Assembly: GCA_945862235.1 (NCBI GenBank)
Contig: CAMAYU010000011.1
Location: 1,610-65,609, forward strand
Source: Schlesneria paludicola DSM 18645
GTDB lineage: Bacteria; Planctomycetota; Planctomycetia; Planctomycetales; Planctomycetaceae
DNA length: 64,000 bases
Reading direction: 5' to 3'
Shown: piece by piece, positions 20,687-33,078 of the stretch
How positions within the stretch are numbered: position 1 is the first letter of the stretch
How the letters are laid out: every line of letters starts with the position of its first letter
The notes under the pieces: model-generated
What the model was told of the DNA's origin: nothing
Seen by the model: the letters and a program-made list of their open reading frames with translations, nothing else
Databases searched by the model: none
Position numbers and translations under genes: made by a program

Positions 20687-22069
20687 ATGACATCGTTCGT
20701 CTCCCATCTCGAAGCGGCCATCGACGGCACGACTCTTCCCGCCGATCGGCTGCAAACTTTGCACAACGACCGGCCGCTGTGGGTTCGGTACGACATGCAG
20801 GCCGTCGCGCGAACGCTCACGAAAGAGAAGCTGCGGGAGCGGCCACTCGACATGTGGCGCTATCGAGAACTGCTGCCGGTCCCGTTCGAGACCGAACCCG
20901 TTTCATTGGGCGAGGGTCAGACGCCGCTGTTGCCGTGCCCGCGCATCGCGTCGCGGTATGGACTCGAACAACTTTGGATCAAGGATGAATCGCACCTGCC
21001 GACGGGGAGCTTCAAGAGTCGCGGGCTGGCGATGGCGATCACGATGGCCAAGCACTTGGGTGTCCGTCGCGTCGCGTTGCCTTCCGCTGGAAATGCGGGC
21101 GGCGCAGCGGCGGCCTACGCGGCGCGAGCCGGTCTGGAAGCCTACGTCTTCATGCCCGAAGACACTCCCGTCGTGAACCTCTACGAATGCCGACTGGCTG
21201 GTGCGAAGACGTTCCTCGTCAACGGACTCATCACCGACTGCGGCCGCATCGTGCGCGAAGGCAAGCAGCGGATGAACTGGTTCGATCTCTCCACGCTCAA
21301 GGAGCCGTATCGGATCGAAGGGAAGAAAACGATGGGCCTCGAACTGGCCGAACAGTTTGATTGGCAGCTCCCCGACGTGATTCTCTATCCCACAGGTGGC
21401 GGCACGGGTTTGATCGGCATGTGGAAGGCGTTTCAAGAACTGAGCCAGTTAGGTTGGCTGAAGGAGGAGGCTGGTCGGCTGACTGCTCCTGTCCCCTCGC
21501 CCCAACTTTGTGGGGAGAGGGCTAGGGTGAGTGGCGAGTCCTTCCAGACCACGCAGGCAATTGAAGAAAAGATCCCTCACCCTCACCCTCTGCCCACCAG
21601 AGCGTGGGGCGAGGGGACCAAGCCAAAGTTCCCGCGCATGGTCAGTGTTCAATCCACCGGCTGTGCCCCCATTGCGAAGGCGTTTGAAGCCGGATCGCGC
21701 TTCGCCGAGCCGTTCGCCAACGCGGCGACCATCGCGAGCGGCATTCGCGTCCCGGCGGCCGTCGGCGACTTCATGATCCTCGACGCCGTGCAGGAGAGCG
21801 GCGGCGTGGCACTGCAAGTCGAAGAGGCACGCATCCGCGAATGGATGCACCTCGTCGCAGCCTCCGAAGGGATCGCGATCTGTCCCGAGACGGCCGCGTG
21901 CATCGGGGCACTCGAACGGCTGACGCGCGACGGCTGGATCAAGCCCCACGAACGTGTCGTCGTCTTCAACACGGGTGCCGCGCAGAAGTACGTTGAAGCG
22001 ATGAAGTGCGATCTGCCCAAACTCGACATCACGCGGCCAATCGACTGGGACTGGCTCTCGGAGTTGTAA
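20687..22069 (+). CDS. thrC: threonine synthase (with in-frame palindromic insertion at 21491-21618)
   Basis: SLGEGQTPL, PTGSFKSRG (PLP lysine), PSAGNAG, YRIEGKKTMG, PTGGGTG; long upstream part of ORF 19994.. is not part of the gene. Confidence 0.92.
   Translation: MTSFVSHLEAAIDGTTLPADRLQTLHNDRPLWVRYDMQAVARTLTKEKLRERPLDMWRYRELLPVPFETEPVSLGEGQTPLLPCPRIASRYGLEQLWIKDESHLPTGSFKSRGLAMAITMAKHLGVRRVALPSAGNAGGAAAAYAARAGLEAYVFMPEDTPVVNLYECRLAGAKTFLVNGLITDCGRIVREGKQRMNWFDLSTLKEPYRIEGKKTMGLELAEQFDWQLPDVILYPTGGGTGLIGMWKAFQELSQLGWLKEEAGRLTAPVPSPQLCGERARVSGESFQTTQAIEEKIPHPHPLPTRAWGEGTKPKFPRMVSVQSTGCAPIAKAFEAGSRFAEPFANAATIASGIRVPAAVGDFMILDAVQESGGVALQVEEARIREWMHLVAASEGIAICPETAACIGALERLTRDGWIKPHERVVVFNTGAAQKYVEAMKCDLPKLDITRPIDWDWLSEL
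21491..21618. repeat. CCCCTCGCCCC...GGGGAGAGGG-type palindromic element in-frame inside thrC
   Basis: Imperfect 44-bp arms 21491-21534 and 21574-21618 (outer 14 bp GTCCCCTCGCCCCA perfect); related half-element intergenic at 31069-31110. Confidence 0.85.
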
Positions 22070-29730: not shown

Positions 29731-30699
29731 TTAGTATTCGCCCACAACTTCGCCGCCATTGCGCGTGGCCAGCTTGCGATAGAGTTGAAGATCGACGCTG
29801 TCCGAGACAAATCTCACGGTCCCATCGGCCAATGTGAAATGGGCACCACCGACATGCCAACTGCCGAACGACATTTCCATGATGACACCGTGGACCGTCG
29901 GATCGCGTCGGCTGTTGATTTTGCCGAAGGTGCTTCCCACGAATTCCGAGTACTCGGTTCCACCAATCCCACCCAATGCCCAGGTCCCCGTTTGAGGTGA
30001 ACCAAACTGCCAATAGTCCATTCCCTGTCCGTCCTTGACGTATGTGGGATCGGTAAACGATTCGCCAATGAGAATGGTGTTCGAGGTGCCATCGAAAATG
30101 TCGGCCATCCTGACGTTACTACAACCGAAAAAGATGCCATCGTGAGTTGCCTGTTCCAGCGCAGCGGTGGTGCCGCTGCCTGCGGGGATCGTTGAAGCAT
30201 CATCGGATGCGGCTATGGACGAAGCTACGCCGCGGTAACTGACCGGCGATCGCCCCGGAATGCTCTCGTTATCAATATGCCCAGGAACAGCCATGCTCGG
30301 GCAGCGAAATGCGGGGATCATTTTTTCGCAGGCCGTTAAGTTTGGCGAACCGACCGCGTTCCAGTCTCCCAAGCCGCTCTCCGCCCAGATCAACGTACCA
30401 TACAGAGCGGACAACTCGAGCTGAGGCAGGATCATGGCCTGCCAGCCGGTTTCGCGTTCGTCCCATCCGAACGGGAACACGCCGTGAGTGTCGTGGTAGT
30501 TGTGCATCGCCAAGCCGAGCTGCTTCAAATTGTTCTTGCACTGCGTTCGCCGCGCCGCCTCACGCGCCTGTTGCACGGCGGGTACCAGCAGCGCGACCAG
30601 CACCGCGATGATCGCGATCACGACGAGCAACTCAATCAGCGTGAAACCACGACGGCGAACGTGCCCCGATTCCGATGTTCCAAGCAAATCACAAAGCAT
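29731..30699 (-). CDS. DUF1559 prepilin-type N-terminal cleavage/methylation protein
   Basis: [32 protein letters not shown]9-DG ([12 protein letters not shown]); AGGAG RBS. Confidence 0.95.
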
Positions 30700-31388
30700 G
30701 ATCGACTCCTGTATGAAAAACAGACCGACTGGCAACGACGAGCCGGACTTGGAGCACAGTTTAGGAACGGTTGTAAACCGTTGACTTGAGTCCCGTGAAT
30801 ACGGTCAGAAAGAACGGAATCCACATCTGATGCTGCGAATCCAAAGTACGGTCTTGGGTGCGCCGGAACGTTCGACGAAAGTGCGAGAGTGCATTCAAGC
30901 TCACACTTTCAACGGACGGGGAATCCGCTCGTTTCAAAGCATCTGAGAGTGCGGCACACCCGGCAGGGCACTGACACGCGCCGATGAGGCTCCCCCATTA
31001 GGCTCCAATCACTTTGGAGAAACAACGGTGACTCGTCGCAAAGAATGAGGCAAACCTATCCAAGAACGCCCCTCGGCCCCTCTCCCGGCAGTGCCTGAGC
31101 GAGGGAGAGGATTGCGGGTTCATCGGGGAATGCGTGCTGTCACGCAATTCGTGTCGAGTATTGGAAATACGGCGACATGAACTTTTGAGGCATGATTCCG
31201 ATGTTCAATCAGAAAAAAGCATAGCCCTGACCAAACGAGCTTGAACACAGGGCTTGAGGCACCGTTGGCGCATGTGGTTAGTTCACAGAAGACTCAGTAA
31301 GAACTTCCTCGACGAACCTAAACAACGAAGCACATTTCCCAAGACATGGCTACAACGCAACCAGGTTTGAAACAGCTTCGATTGTTGA

Positions 31389-31763
31389 TCACGACTTGTC
31401 GGCCTTTGAGGCGCACTCAATGTTGATGATATTCTTGCCTGGTTTGACTTCAGCAGTTTTCAATGACGCATTATCCACTTTACCCGACCGAACGGTGATT
31501 GCGTGCTTGCCGACCTTGGCACCCTTGATGTCTTGAACGTAGGTCAGTTCGTATTCCCCGAGAGTATTCGTATTCCCGTCAGACGGTCGCCCGACTTCGG
31601 GCACGAAACTGATCTCAACGAATTCCAGCGGCTTCCCGTCGAGTGTTACGACGCCTGTAACCGTACCCAGAGGCGGTTGATCAGGAATTCCGCCGCATCC
31701 AGTCAGCGCAATTGCAGTCGTCATGACAAGCCCCATGCTCGTGACTCGAACAATTATTCTCAT
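31389..31763 (-). CDS. carboxypeptidase-regulatory-like domain lipoprotein (DUF1559 partner)
   Basis: Lipobox LTGC, VTGVVTLDGKPL, TNTLGEYEL, GAKVGKH; upstream part of ORF 31389..32297 is out-of-frame overlap with the DUF1559 gene. Confidence 0.8.
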   Translation of the reverse strand: MRIIVRVTSMGLVMTTAIALTGCGGIPDQPPLGTVTGVVTLDGKPLEFVEISFVPEVGRPSDGNTNTLGEYELTYVQDIKGAKVGKHAITVRSGKVDNASLKTAEVKPGKNIINIECASKADKS

Positions 31764-32031
31764 CGTGATATTTCCTTGCCAATGGAAATGCTTAGAACGC
31801 ATTTCGAAATCTGTTTGCCTTGAAAAGGGAAGATCGACGCCTAAGCCATCACTGAGCGCTCGTGATGGGGACCCTCGCTTGCGAGCCAATCTAGCCTGAA
31901 AGGCGATCTGGTGTGCCGAACTCGCCCCGTTGACGCTGCGGAGTGGGTTTGAATCCGCTTCAAAGAACTCATCGTCGCCACTTAGTGCCCCAGCAATGTA
32001 GAGGCAAGCTGAGTGTTGTTTAAGTGCGGCG

Positions 32032-33078
32032 TTAGAGGTCGCTGTTGATTTCGCCTTCTCCGATGGTCCCAAGCCCCGAATAGACTTTGATGTCCATATT
32101 CTGGCTAAGAAACCGCACGGAGCCATCCGCCATGCCGAAATAGGCGCCGCCCGTGTGGTCTGATCCAGCCGTTTCACGTTGCTTGCCATTAATGCCTGCT
32201 TGCGATTGAACCACTGTGTCATATGTCGAAAAGAGTGTCGGCAGACCCCCAATTGCCCAGCCATCGAAGCTGGTGGCGGGTCCAAGCACTCCAGCATTTA
32301 ATCGCTGAACCTCACCGACGATGATTGTGTTGGACGATCCATCGATAATGTATTCGATGCGAGTGTTGCTGTTTACAGAAAAAATTCCGCCGTTATCCCC
32401 CAGCGACCCCATAGCGGATGTTGGATTTGTGCCGTAATACGTGGTGCGGTCCCCGGCAGCACCCGCCGTATTCAACGCCAGATTGCCTGCGCCGACACAG
32501 CCTCCATAGTCATTAAATCCACCGTTCCATTTGGCGAGTGATTTGAAGCCCATAGTCAGGGCGGTGTGTTTGTTTACGGGGCGGGAAGGACAGAGGTAAC
32601 CCGGAATGTTCCTGCTGGCTAACGGTTGCCCTGAAGCGTCTAACTCGTTGCGTTTGACATCGACGTTGAAGTTCCAAAGGTTGTACAGAGAGGCTTGATC
32701 CATGAAGGGCAGAATCTGAACCATCCAGCTTTGACAGCGATCGCCATTTTCAGCACGCCAGAGCATGTCGTACCCTCCCGTTGTGGCTGAGTTGAGAGTC
32801 TTGTCACTGGCATTCACGGGTGACGTGCCCAACATGATAATTGCACCGGGAGGAAACACTTGGCTCCGGTCGTAGTAGTTCGCCAGTGCCAATCCCATTT
32901 GCTTGAGATTGTTCTGGCACTGAGTCTTTCGTGCGGCTTCTCTTGCCTGTTGCACGGCTGGCAACAGCAATGCAATGAGTACGGCGATGATCGCAATGAC
33001 CACGAGCAACTCGATCAGCGTGAAGCCGCGATGGTGCGGCATCTTTGGTTTCCGACGTTCGGACAATTCGACGACCAT
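32032..33078 (-). CDS. DUF1559 prepilin-type N-terminal cleavage/methylation protein
   Basis: [42 protein letters not shown]; AAGGAG RBS. Confidence 0.95.
   Translation of the reverse strand: MVVELSERRKPKMPHHRGFTLIELLVVIAIIAVLIALLLPAVQQAREAARKTQCQNNLKQMGLALANYYDRSQVFPPGAIIMLGTSPVNASDKTLNSATTGGYDMLWRAENGDRCQSWMVQILPFMDQASLYNLWNFNVDVKRNELDASGQPLASRNIPGYLCPSRPVNKHTALTMGFKSLAKWNGGFNDYGGCVGAGNLALNTAGAAGDRTTYYGTNPTSAMGSLGDNGGIFSVNSNTRIEYIIDGSSNTIIVGEVQRLNAGVLGPATSFDGWAIGGLPTLFSTYDTVVQSQAGINGKQRETAGSDHTGGAYFGMADGSVRFLSQNMDIKVYSGLGTIGEGEINSDL

Follow-up and report, generated by a model that had tools for sequence, protein, structure and literature searches.

How did a threonine synthase come to contain about 50 residues that related enzymes do not have, and what kind of sequence encodes them? 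The question is raised by a thrC gene at positions 20,687 to 22,069 of a 64,000-nucleotide (nt) stretch of the genome of the planctomycete Schlesneria paludicola DSM 18645 (assembly GCA_945862235.1, contig CAMAYU010000011.1, positions 1,610 to 65,609). This whole stretch is called the window, and positions are counted from its first letter. The genome examined (G000) comprises 6.83 Mb in 377 contigs with 60% G+C, the window corresponding to C11:1610-65609. A preliminary description of the window had ascribed the extra residues to a palindromic element and had proposed a genome-wide invasion of coding sequence by such elements. From the analysis reported here, the thrC insert is best read, with a probability of roughly 0.85, as a selfish or near-neutral passenger: a hairpin doublet, similar in architecture to the doublets of repetitive extragenic palindromic (REP) sequences known as REPINs, that sits in a permissive surface loop and is translated as about 50 disordered residues.

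The thrC insert and its repeat units

thrC (20687..22069, + strand; frame 20687-22066 plus stop, 460 aa) encodes a threonine synthase of the PRK08197/NF006050 type. The protein scored 568.2 bits against NCBIfam NF006050 (equivalog cut-off of 303), in two matching stretches with a break at residue ~267. Likewise, solved threonine synthases aligned with it to residue ~258, and then again from residues ~308-313. The pyridoxal phosphate (PLP) lysine K110, located in SFKSRG, and the GGGTG phosphate loop (residues 237-241) were invariant in an alignment of 30 sequences of database homologues. Thus, the open frame of 460 codons and the PLP motifs are intact, as had been claimed. A Foldseek search with a model of the protein returned threonine synthases as best matches (2zsj and 2d1f, TMt of 0.78).

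Between LGWL and PKFPRM, 46-53 extra residues were found by orthologue alignment, in keeping with the ~50 residues attributed beforehand to a palindromic element. Relative to orthologues without the repeat family, the extra coding DNA spans 21461..21616 (+ strand; residues 259-310, KEEAGRL...AWGEG), as judged from alignments of 17 orthologues and 30 database homologues. In eleven orthologues, LGWL and P(K/R)xPRM are only 2-6 residues apart; hence, the loop is not shared by orthologues that lack the family. A native, lineage-specific loop was ruled out, since the unit described below is present 230 times in the genome and orthologues exist without it.

The insert is one head-out inverted doublet of this unit. 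The left unit (21488..21531, + strand; translated PVPSPQLCGERARVS) points head outward, forms a hairpin by itself and matched the family profile with an nhmmer E-value of 1.3e-11. The right unit is its inverted copy (21575..21618, - strand; translated PHPHPLPTRAWGEG), pairs with the left unit and was detected with E-values of 3.8e-05 genome-wide and 3.5e-07 in the window. The two are separated by a copy-specific spacer of 43 nt (21532..21574, + strand; translated GESFQTTQAIEEKI), which evolves faster than any other part of the insert (17-27% divergence). Complementarity is 14/14 for the outer arms (21491-21504 and 21605-21618) and 86% for the inner arms (21510-21531 and 21576-21597; 22 nt). 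Of the 128-bp element with 44-bp inverted arms that had been described, the inverted arms therefore stand; instead of a single conserved element, the insert is a composite of two inverted units of ~45-55 nt and a copy-specific spacer.

Upstream of the doublet, a repeat search detected two 10-nt direct copies (GGTTGGCTGA and GGTCGGCTGA; 21452..21482, + strand), 21 nt apart from start to start. The DNA up to the second of these copies contributes the residues KEEAGRL upstream of the element in G000 and its sister species G008 only, and 21 nt of this stretch are missing from the relatives G002 and G017.

The RNA of 21480-21630 was predicted to fold with -82.2 kcal/mol (z = -6.1), and none of 200 shuffled sequences was as stable. 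An Rfam scan of 21300-21800 yielded no family at threshold, the best score being 20.9 bits against a gathering score of 40, and a distant blastn search of a plasmid collection gave no match. Independent assemblies of the sister species G008 and G002 carry this insert as well, as do several metagenome proteins, and an assembly artefact was ruled out for this reason.

The repeat family in the genome

Iterated nhmmer searches identified 230 copies of the ~45-55-nt unit genome-wide, which were merged into 197 elements. The information profile of the unit has sharp ends and is extended at the tail by ~9 nt of weak conservation. A single unit is a hairpin, in which CCCCTCGCCCC pairs with GGGGAGAGGG. 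Its closing pair covaries among copies (G-C in 111, C-G in 10, A-T in 7), and the closing position is paired in 94% of the copies, compared with 76% (maximum of 83%) after shuffling of the 3' partners.

Where two units lie no more than 160 bp apart (n = 33), the arrangement is strongly oriented: 27 pairs are head-out inverted, 6 are direct and none is tail-out. The spacers of the 27 inverted pairs are unlike one another both in length (42-155 nt) and in sequence. Within the window, the related half-element that had been reported between genes at 31069-31110 was recovered as a weak, degenerate single unit (31070..31108, - strand; nhmmer E = 0.009, 11.5 bits; 81-87% blastn identity to family copies), located between the open reading frames (ORFs) 29731-30735(-) and 31389-32297(-).

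A long subfamily of ~62 nt, with an expanded apical hairpin (GGGCACCGCCGCTTCGGTGGTCGGG), accounts by length for ~14 of the 230 units; examples in G000 are C169:10156-10217, C188:10075-10136 and C24:45371-45433. Its copies in genes are translated as ...PTTEAAVPEPGRG...

Copies in coding sequence

An element was counted as intragenic when it was crossed by an open frame that extended for 60 codons or more to either side, and when the flanking 100 codons were coding-like by their codon log-odds, a score for which ORFs of 800 or more codons served as the training set. By construction of this test, intragenic copies are stop-free and in frame. With 84 of 197 elements in 70 ORFs, 43% of the focal family was intragenic, as compared with 54% of random 45-bp sites (1633/3000). 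The GTAG-tagged REP family that flanks the genome's only REP-associated tyrosine transposase (RAYT) gene, with 154 matches in 93 elements, was intragenic in 2 of 93 cases (2%). Thus, a classical extragenic repeat and the focal family give clearly different results in this test, the latter being only mildly depleted in genes.

Pfam domains were found in 17 of the 20 host ORFs tested. Hosts supported in this way include an aldehyde dehydrogenase, TrpE, a class-V aminotransferase, a PLP decarboxylase, an FGGY kinase, a GT4 glycosyltransferase and a radical-SAM enzyme. In the GT4 protein, a UPF0261 protein, an FHA-kinase, TrpE and a B12/radical-SAM enzyme, the element falls between domains; the domain match that it splits is Aminotran_5, Aldedh, Pyridoxal_deC, FGGY_C or Dynamin_N in other hosts. 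Four classes of encoded peptide were distinguished, in agreement with the open frames of the unit (EEPLTLALSPQSRGEGT, PHPNPLPAKPGRGDK, PLAPALRGEGPGVRG and VPSPPSSGERARVRG). Most of the intragenic units that occur singly are antisense to the reference strand of the unit (46 versus 12). Doublets and triplets were intragenic in 26 of 30 cases, compared with 58 of 167 single units and 54% of random sites; several of these intragenic doublets and triplets share giant ORFs, C121 having four and C24 three.

The tolerated, genome-wide invasion proposed at the outset, on the model of the Rickettsia palindromic elements (RPEs), is therefore borne out for this family. The broader proposal that two repeat families invade genes finds support for the focal family only, and not as a general property: the RAYT-linked GTAG family is nearly absent from genes, and the GTAG REP in the second gene cited, shc (window positions 5749-5812, GTAGGACGGACGCCCTCGTCCGTCC...), is unlike that family in sequence. 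The RAYT-flanking GTAG family has no match on this contig.

Gain and loss of the insert in related species

The extra stretch amounts to 53 residues in G000 and G008 and to 46 in G002. In G017, a remnant comprises only the outermost parts of the insert (TAPVPSPESCDAG). The remnant in G024 reads KDEGEG, in which KDE matches the left flank of the G000/G008 allele, and GEG the last 11 nt of the right arm. A codon tree of thrC, computed from ungapped columns, had the topology (outgroups,(G002,(G017,(G024,(G000,G008))))). The most economical reading is a single insertion before the clade split, followed by two independent partial deletions in G017 and G024.

Further length variants of the insert were present in the metagenome orthologues P0002, P0003, P0004 and P0006, and a degenerate insert was present in P0017 (79% identity). 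As far as these sequences indicate, the insertion may thus predate this clade and have been lost more often.

The same ThrC loop has received other palindromes in two other planctomycete lineages. The orthologue P0009 (L077:301-1632) carries an unrelated palindrome of 117 nt (-69.7 kcal/mol, z = -8.1), and in P0116 (L078:301-1623) the loop holds 111 nt of repeated GCCGCGACTCCGTCGCGA-like units (z = -3.2). Thus, the loop is a permissive hot spot. Presence and absence were also observed at other sites of the focal family. In the aldehyde dehydrogenase gene, inserts of 72, 114, 123 and 36 nt occur, all multiples of three, and G002 and G012 are empty; in the TrpE gene, four species have a doublet, G002 has a single unit and G012 has none.

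Paralogues, selection and predicted structure

A second threonine synthase is encoded on contig C20 (464 aa; 225 bits against TIGR00260, cut-off of 167). The TIGR00260-type gene was found in 33 of 33 genomes of the genus with 83-98% identity, and the insert-bearing PRK08197 type in 18 of 24 congeners sampled. Since the TIGR00260-type enzyme is intact and universal in the genus, the insert-bearing gene is a paralogue, a conserved and selected one that is probably not uniquely essential, and the notion that an essential enzyme has been colonised has to be softened accordingly. A third threonine-synthase-like PLP enzyme of 369 aa (G000:C62:9765-10874, L003:1489-2598) scored under every curated threonine synthase cut-off.

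With a second thrC above its equivalog cut-off in every genome of the genus, the insert-bearing gene might be a decaying redundant copy, in which an insertion was tolerated solely because the TIGR00260-type enzyme does the work. In the flanks of the insert, the ratio of non-synonymous to synonymous divergence (dN/dS) was 0.04-0.05 between insert-bearing orthologues, at a dS of 0.33-0.77, and between two relatives with deleted inserts it was 0.03, the insert-bearing pairs being judged no higher. Thus, strong purifying selection on thrC continued after the insert had been acquired. The intact frame and the invariant PLP lysine and GGGTG loop speak against decay as well, as does the fact that many other hosts of the family are ordinary enzymes. 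Decay of a redundant copy is improbable on this evidence; of the two halves of one refuting condition that had been named in the preliminary description, a second thrC exists and inactivity of this copy was not borne out.

Within the insert, dN/dS was 0.33-1.08, with a dN four to five times that of the flanks. These ratios derive from few differences (5-7.5 synonymous and 8.5-16.5 non-synonymous). The 'synonymous' divergence of the insert was 0.17-0.23, versus 0.73-0.77 for the flanks in comparisons with G002. Across three species, divergence amounts to 4-17% in the arms and 17-27% in the spacer, the long hairpin persists (-81 to -102 kcal/mol), and in the apical stem of one arm an A-T pair has changed to C-G. 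Judged from these divergences, the constraint on the insert lies in the nucleic acid, with the peptide unconstrained. Its source could be the element's own needs, gene conversion among copies, or a structural role of the RNA or DNA.

An alternative reading is that the insert has been recruited for a function, either as an mRNA hairpin acting on translation pausing, RNase III processing or mRNA stability, or as a useful disordered loop, and would then be retained by selection and not as a passenger. Arms and hairpin energy conserved in three species while the spacer drifts, the low 'synonymous' divergence relative to the flanks, the covariation of the closing pair across the family and the over-representation of doublets in genes would all be compatible with such a role. 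However, most of the insert is gone from G024 and G017 although selection on the gene shows no relaxation there, and a recent common origin, gene conversion within the set of 230 copies or the demands of the element's propagation would be expected to conserve the nucleotides as well. A dN/dS of about 1 moreover rules out a sequence-specific role of the protein segment. Recruitment is thus quite unlikely to account for the insert.

That the insert is removed before or after translation, in the manner of an intron or intein, so that the mature enzyme is without the loop, can be dismissed almost entirely: the RNA is indeed strongly structured, but no Rfam family reached threshold, 128 nt is too short for group I or II introns or inteins, and intragenic copies that are stop-free and orthologous inserts that differ by multiples of three are unexpected for excised sequence.

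The preferred reading, a passenger in a permissive loop, agrees with the predicted structure. An AlphaFold2 model of the protein, computed with a 30-sequence alignment, had a mean predicted local distance difference test (pLDDT) value of 71 and a predicted TM score (pTM) of 0.73. Residues 262-311 had a pLDDT of 29-40 and no secondary structure, and are placed between a helix (240-255) and a strand (317-323); the helix begins at the phosphate-binding GGGTG loop. The thrC insert is thus predicted to be a disordered surface loop. Judged by fold-type II PLP enzymes in general, the loop that bears the insert would lie at the end of this helix that is far from the cofactor.

Distribution in the genus and phylum

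The distribution of the family was determined by a search for the exact stem pattern, with the reversed pattern as a control that gave zero matches everywhere. In the genus, 16 of 33 genomes had 18-211 matches and the other 17, several of them complete, had none; within the genus, a single subclade has the family in abundance. Among 300 other genomes sampled from the phylum, 8 had matches, with a maximum of 14. Since matches are confined to part of the genus and scarce in the phylum, the family is a lineage-specific expansion. A limited full-text search of the literature found no account of this repeat family in Planctomycetes.

In two sister assemblies, the thrC contigs end inside or at the insert (G001:C204 at its start; G006:C314 and C19 at their ends; L026, L013 and L033). 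These breaks suggest that the family fragments short-read assemblies and that copy numbers are underestimates.

Search for a mobilising function

The genome contains eight Y1-transposase-like matches, and a single protein passed the RAYT model NF047646 (190 bits; G000:C195:4911-5288, L039:1471-2022). Two other Y1-like genes were rejected as candidate mobilisers, the L038-like gene because several family-rich genomes lack it and the L041-like gene because it occurs in family-free genomes. The L038 protein itself (362 aa; G000:C10:41909-42994, L038:1420-2505) has an N-terminal Y1/RAYT-like domain that scored 60 bits, under the cut-off; its C-terminal stretch matches the DNA-binding end of DnaA, and its occurrence across the genus is patchy. 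Between unit pairs 300-3500 bp apart, no parent element was recognised, most of these pairs lying inside single long ORFs.

Several observations from this search and from the preceding sections count against the passenger reading. None of the focal units adjoins any of the eight Y1_Tnp matches, the nearest being more than 3 kb away. The flanks of the RAYT gene (L039:1351-1444 and 2036-2202) are inverted doublets of the GTAG REP (GTAGGGTGCGTT... and GTAGGGTGCGTTGAGTC...), which is unlike the focal unit, and the two Y1-like genes do not co-occur with the focal family across 33 congeners. A target-site duplication was not visible at thrC or Aldedh, the two sites where filled and empty alleles were compared, the empty thrC alleles looking like deletion products. 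The spacers vary from copy to copy, an unusual trait in a unit that transposes whole. Likewise, the excess of doublets in genes over random sites is not predicted by simple purifying selection. As regards the history and expression of thrC, support for the inner nodes that order G017 and G024 in the tree is modest (64-72), and it is a single line of evidence, frame conservation, that suggests that the insert is translated and not removed from the RNA.

Comparison with known systems

Dispersed palindromes translated within unrelated genes are best known from the RPEs, of which 44 copies, nearly half of them in ORFs, are given in the summary of Ogata et al. 2000 in PMC10969869. As far as that summary describes them, RPEs resemble the focal family in being dispersed palindromic repeats with near half of the copies in frame in unrelated genes, and in being translated as extra, fold-compatible peptides that orthologues lack. 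They differ, on the same account, in being a conserved element of ~150 bp with its own conserved peptide, whereas the focal family consists of a 45-55-nt unit that is found alone or in inverted pairs around a variable spacer and uses three reading frames; their host has a reduced intracellular genome, whereas the present one is a presumably free-living planctomycete with 6.8 Mb. Sequence similarity of the GC-rich unit to RPE-1 to RPE-10 is unlikely. Two features of the RPE-like class, which is defined by function and not by sequence, were found here, namely a multi-copy palindrome in frame in unrelated genes, and inserts absent from related orthologues (thrC, Aldedh and TrpE). As to a third, a surface or loop position in a host protein that still functions, the indications are the predicted disordered loop and the flank dN/dS of 0.04-0.05.

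REPs that are intragenic and translated have been described in several species, including Opitutus terrae, a bacterium of the PVC group (Planctomycetes, Verrucomicrobia, Chlamydiae), and Thauera (Di Nocera et al. 2013, PMC3733652). Like REPs and REPINs, the focal family consists of short GC-rich hairpins, often in head-out inverted doublets that form a longer hairpin. Unlike them, it has no GTAG or CGTC tag in the consensus and information profile of 230 copies, the RAYT of the genome is flanked by another, GTAG-tagged REP, 43% of the elements are intragenic versus 2% for that REP family, and the spacers of its doublets vary. By tag, cognate RAYT and extragenic location, the family falls outside the RAYT/REPIN system; the doublet architecture alone is REPIN-like.

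Miniature inverted-repeat transposable elements (MITEs) also occur in bacterial genes, e.g., ERIC, Nezha and the Anabaena MITEs (reviewed in PMC10969869). The focal family shares with MITEs the terminal inverted repeats, the non-coding nature of the element on its own and the in-frame fusions with host ORFs. It differs from MITEs in that its core varies between copies, and in that neither a target-site duplication nor a parent insertion sequence (IS) with matching ends was found.

Discussion

The results may be accommodated as follows if the thrC insert is a passenger. The element would spread at the DNA level by a trans-acting function other than the one RAYT of the genome, and copies with a wrong frame, with stops or at a buried position would be removed by selection. 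In thrC, tolerance would have been helped by the location of the loop, where the helix that starts at GGGTG has its distal end, and by the second thrC. The hairpin of -82 kcal/mol in the mRNA may modulate translation or decay, although this is not required.

A more speculative suggestion concerns the mode of spread. Since doublets are enriched in genes (26/30 versus 54%), spacers are copy-specific and no target-site duplication was seen, spread in the absence of RAYT or IS transposition is pointed to. Such a family might propagate through hairpin-primed or template-switch DNA synthesis, or through gene conversion at short GC-rich matches, and might be blind to coding sequence or even favoured in it, so that it would keep supplying planctomycete proteins with new disordered linkers. 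This is put forward tentatively, as a possibility with the odds against it.

Translated palindromic repeats in genes were already known, and the present case is a well-supported one; what stands out here is the near-random intragenic share, the gene-excluded REP family as a control, the series of gains and losses, and the finding of no transposase. For annotation, the peptides PLTLALSPQSRGEGT, PHPNPLPAKPGRGDK, PLAPALRGEGPGVRG and VPSPPSSGERARVRG should be treated as repeat-derived; they inflate protein lengths and split domain matches, and the family breaks assemblies. Filled, partly deleted and empty orthologous sites in sister species make gain, loss and selection measurable. One genome thus harbours two hairpin families with opposite behaviour, one RAYT-linked and excluded from genes (2%), the other with no transposase found and barely excluded (43% versus 54% at random). 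Selfish DNA inside proteins is thereby quantified in a large-genome planctomycete, beyond the reduced intracellular genomes where it is best known.

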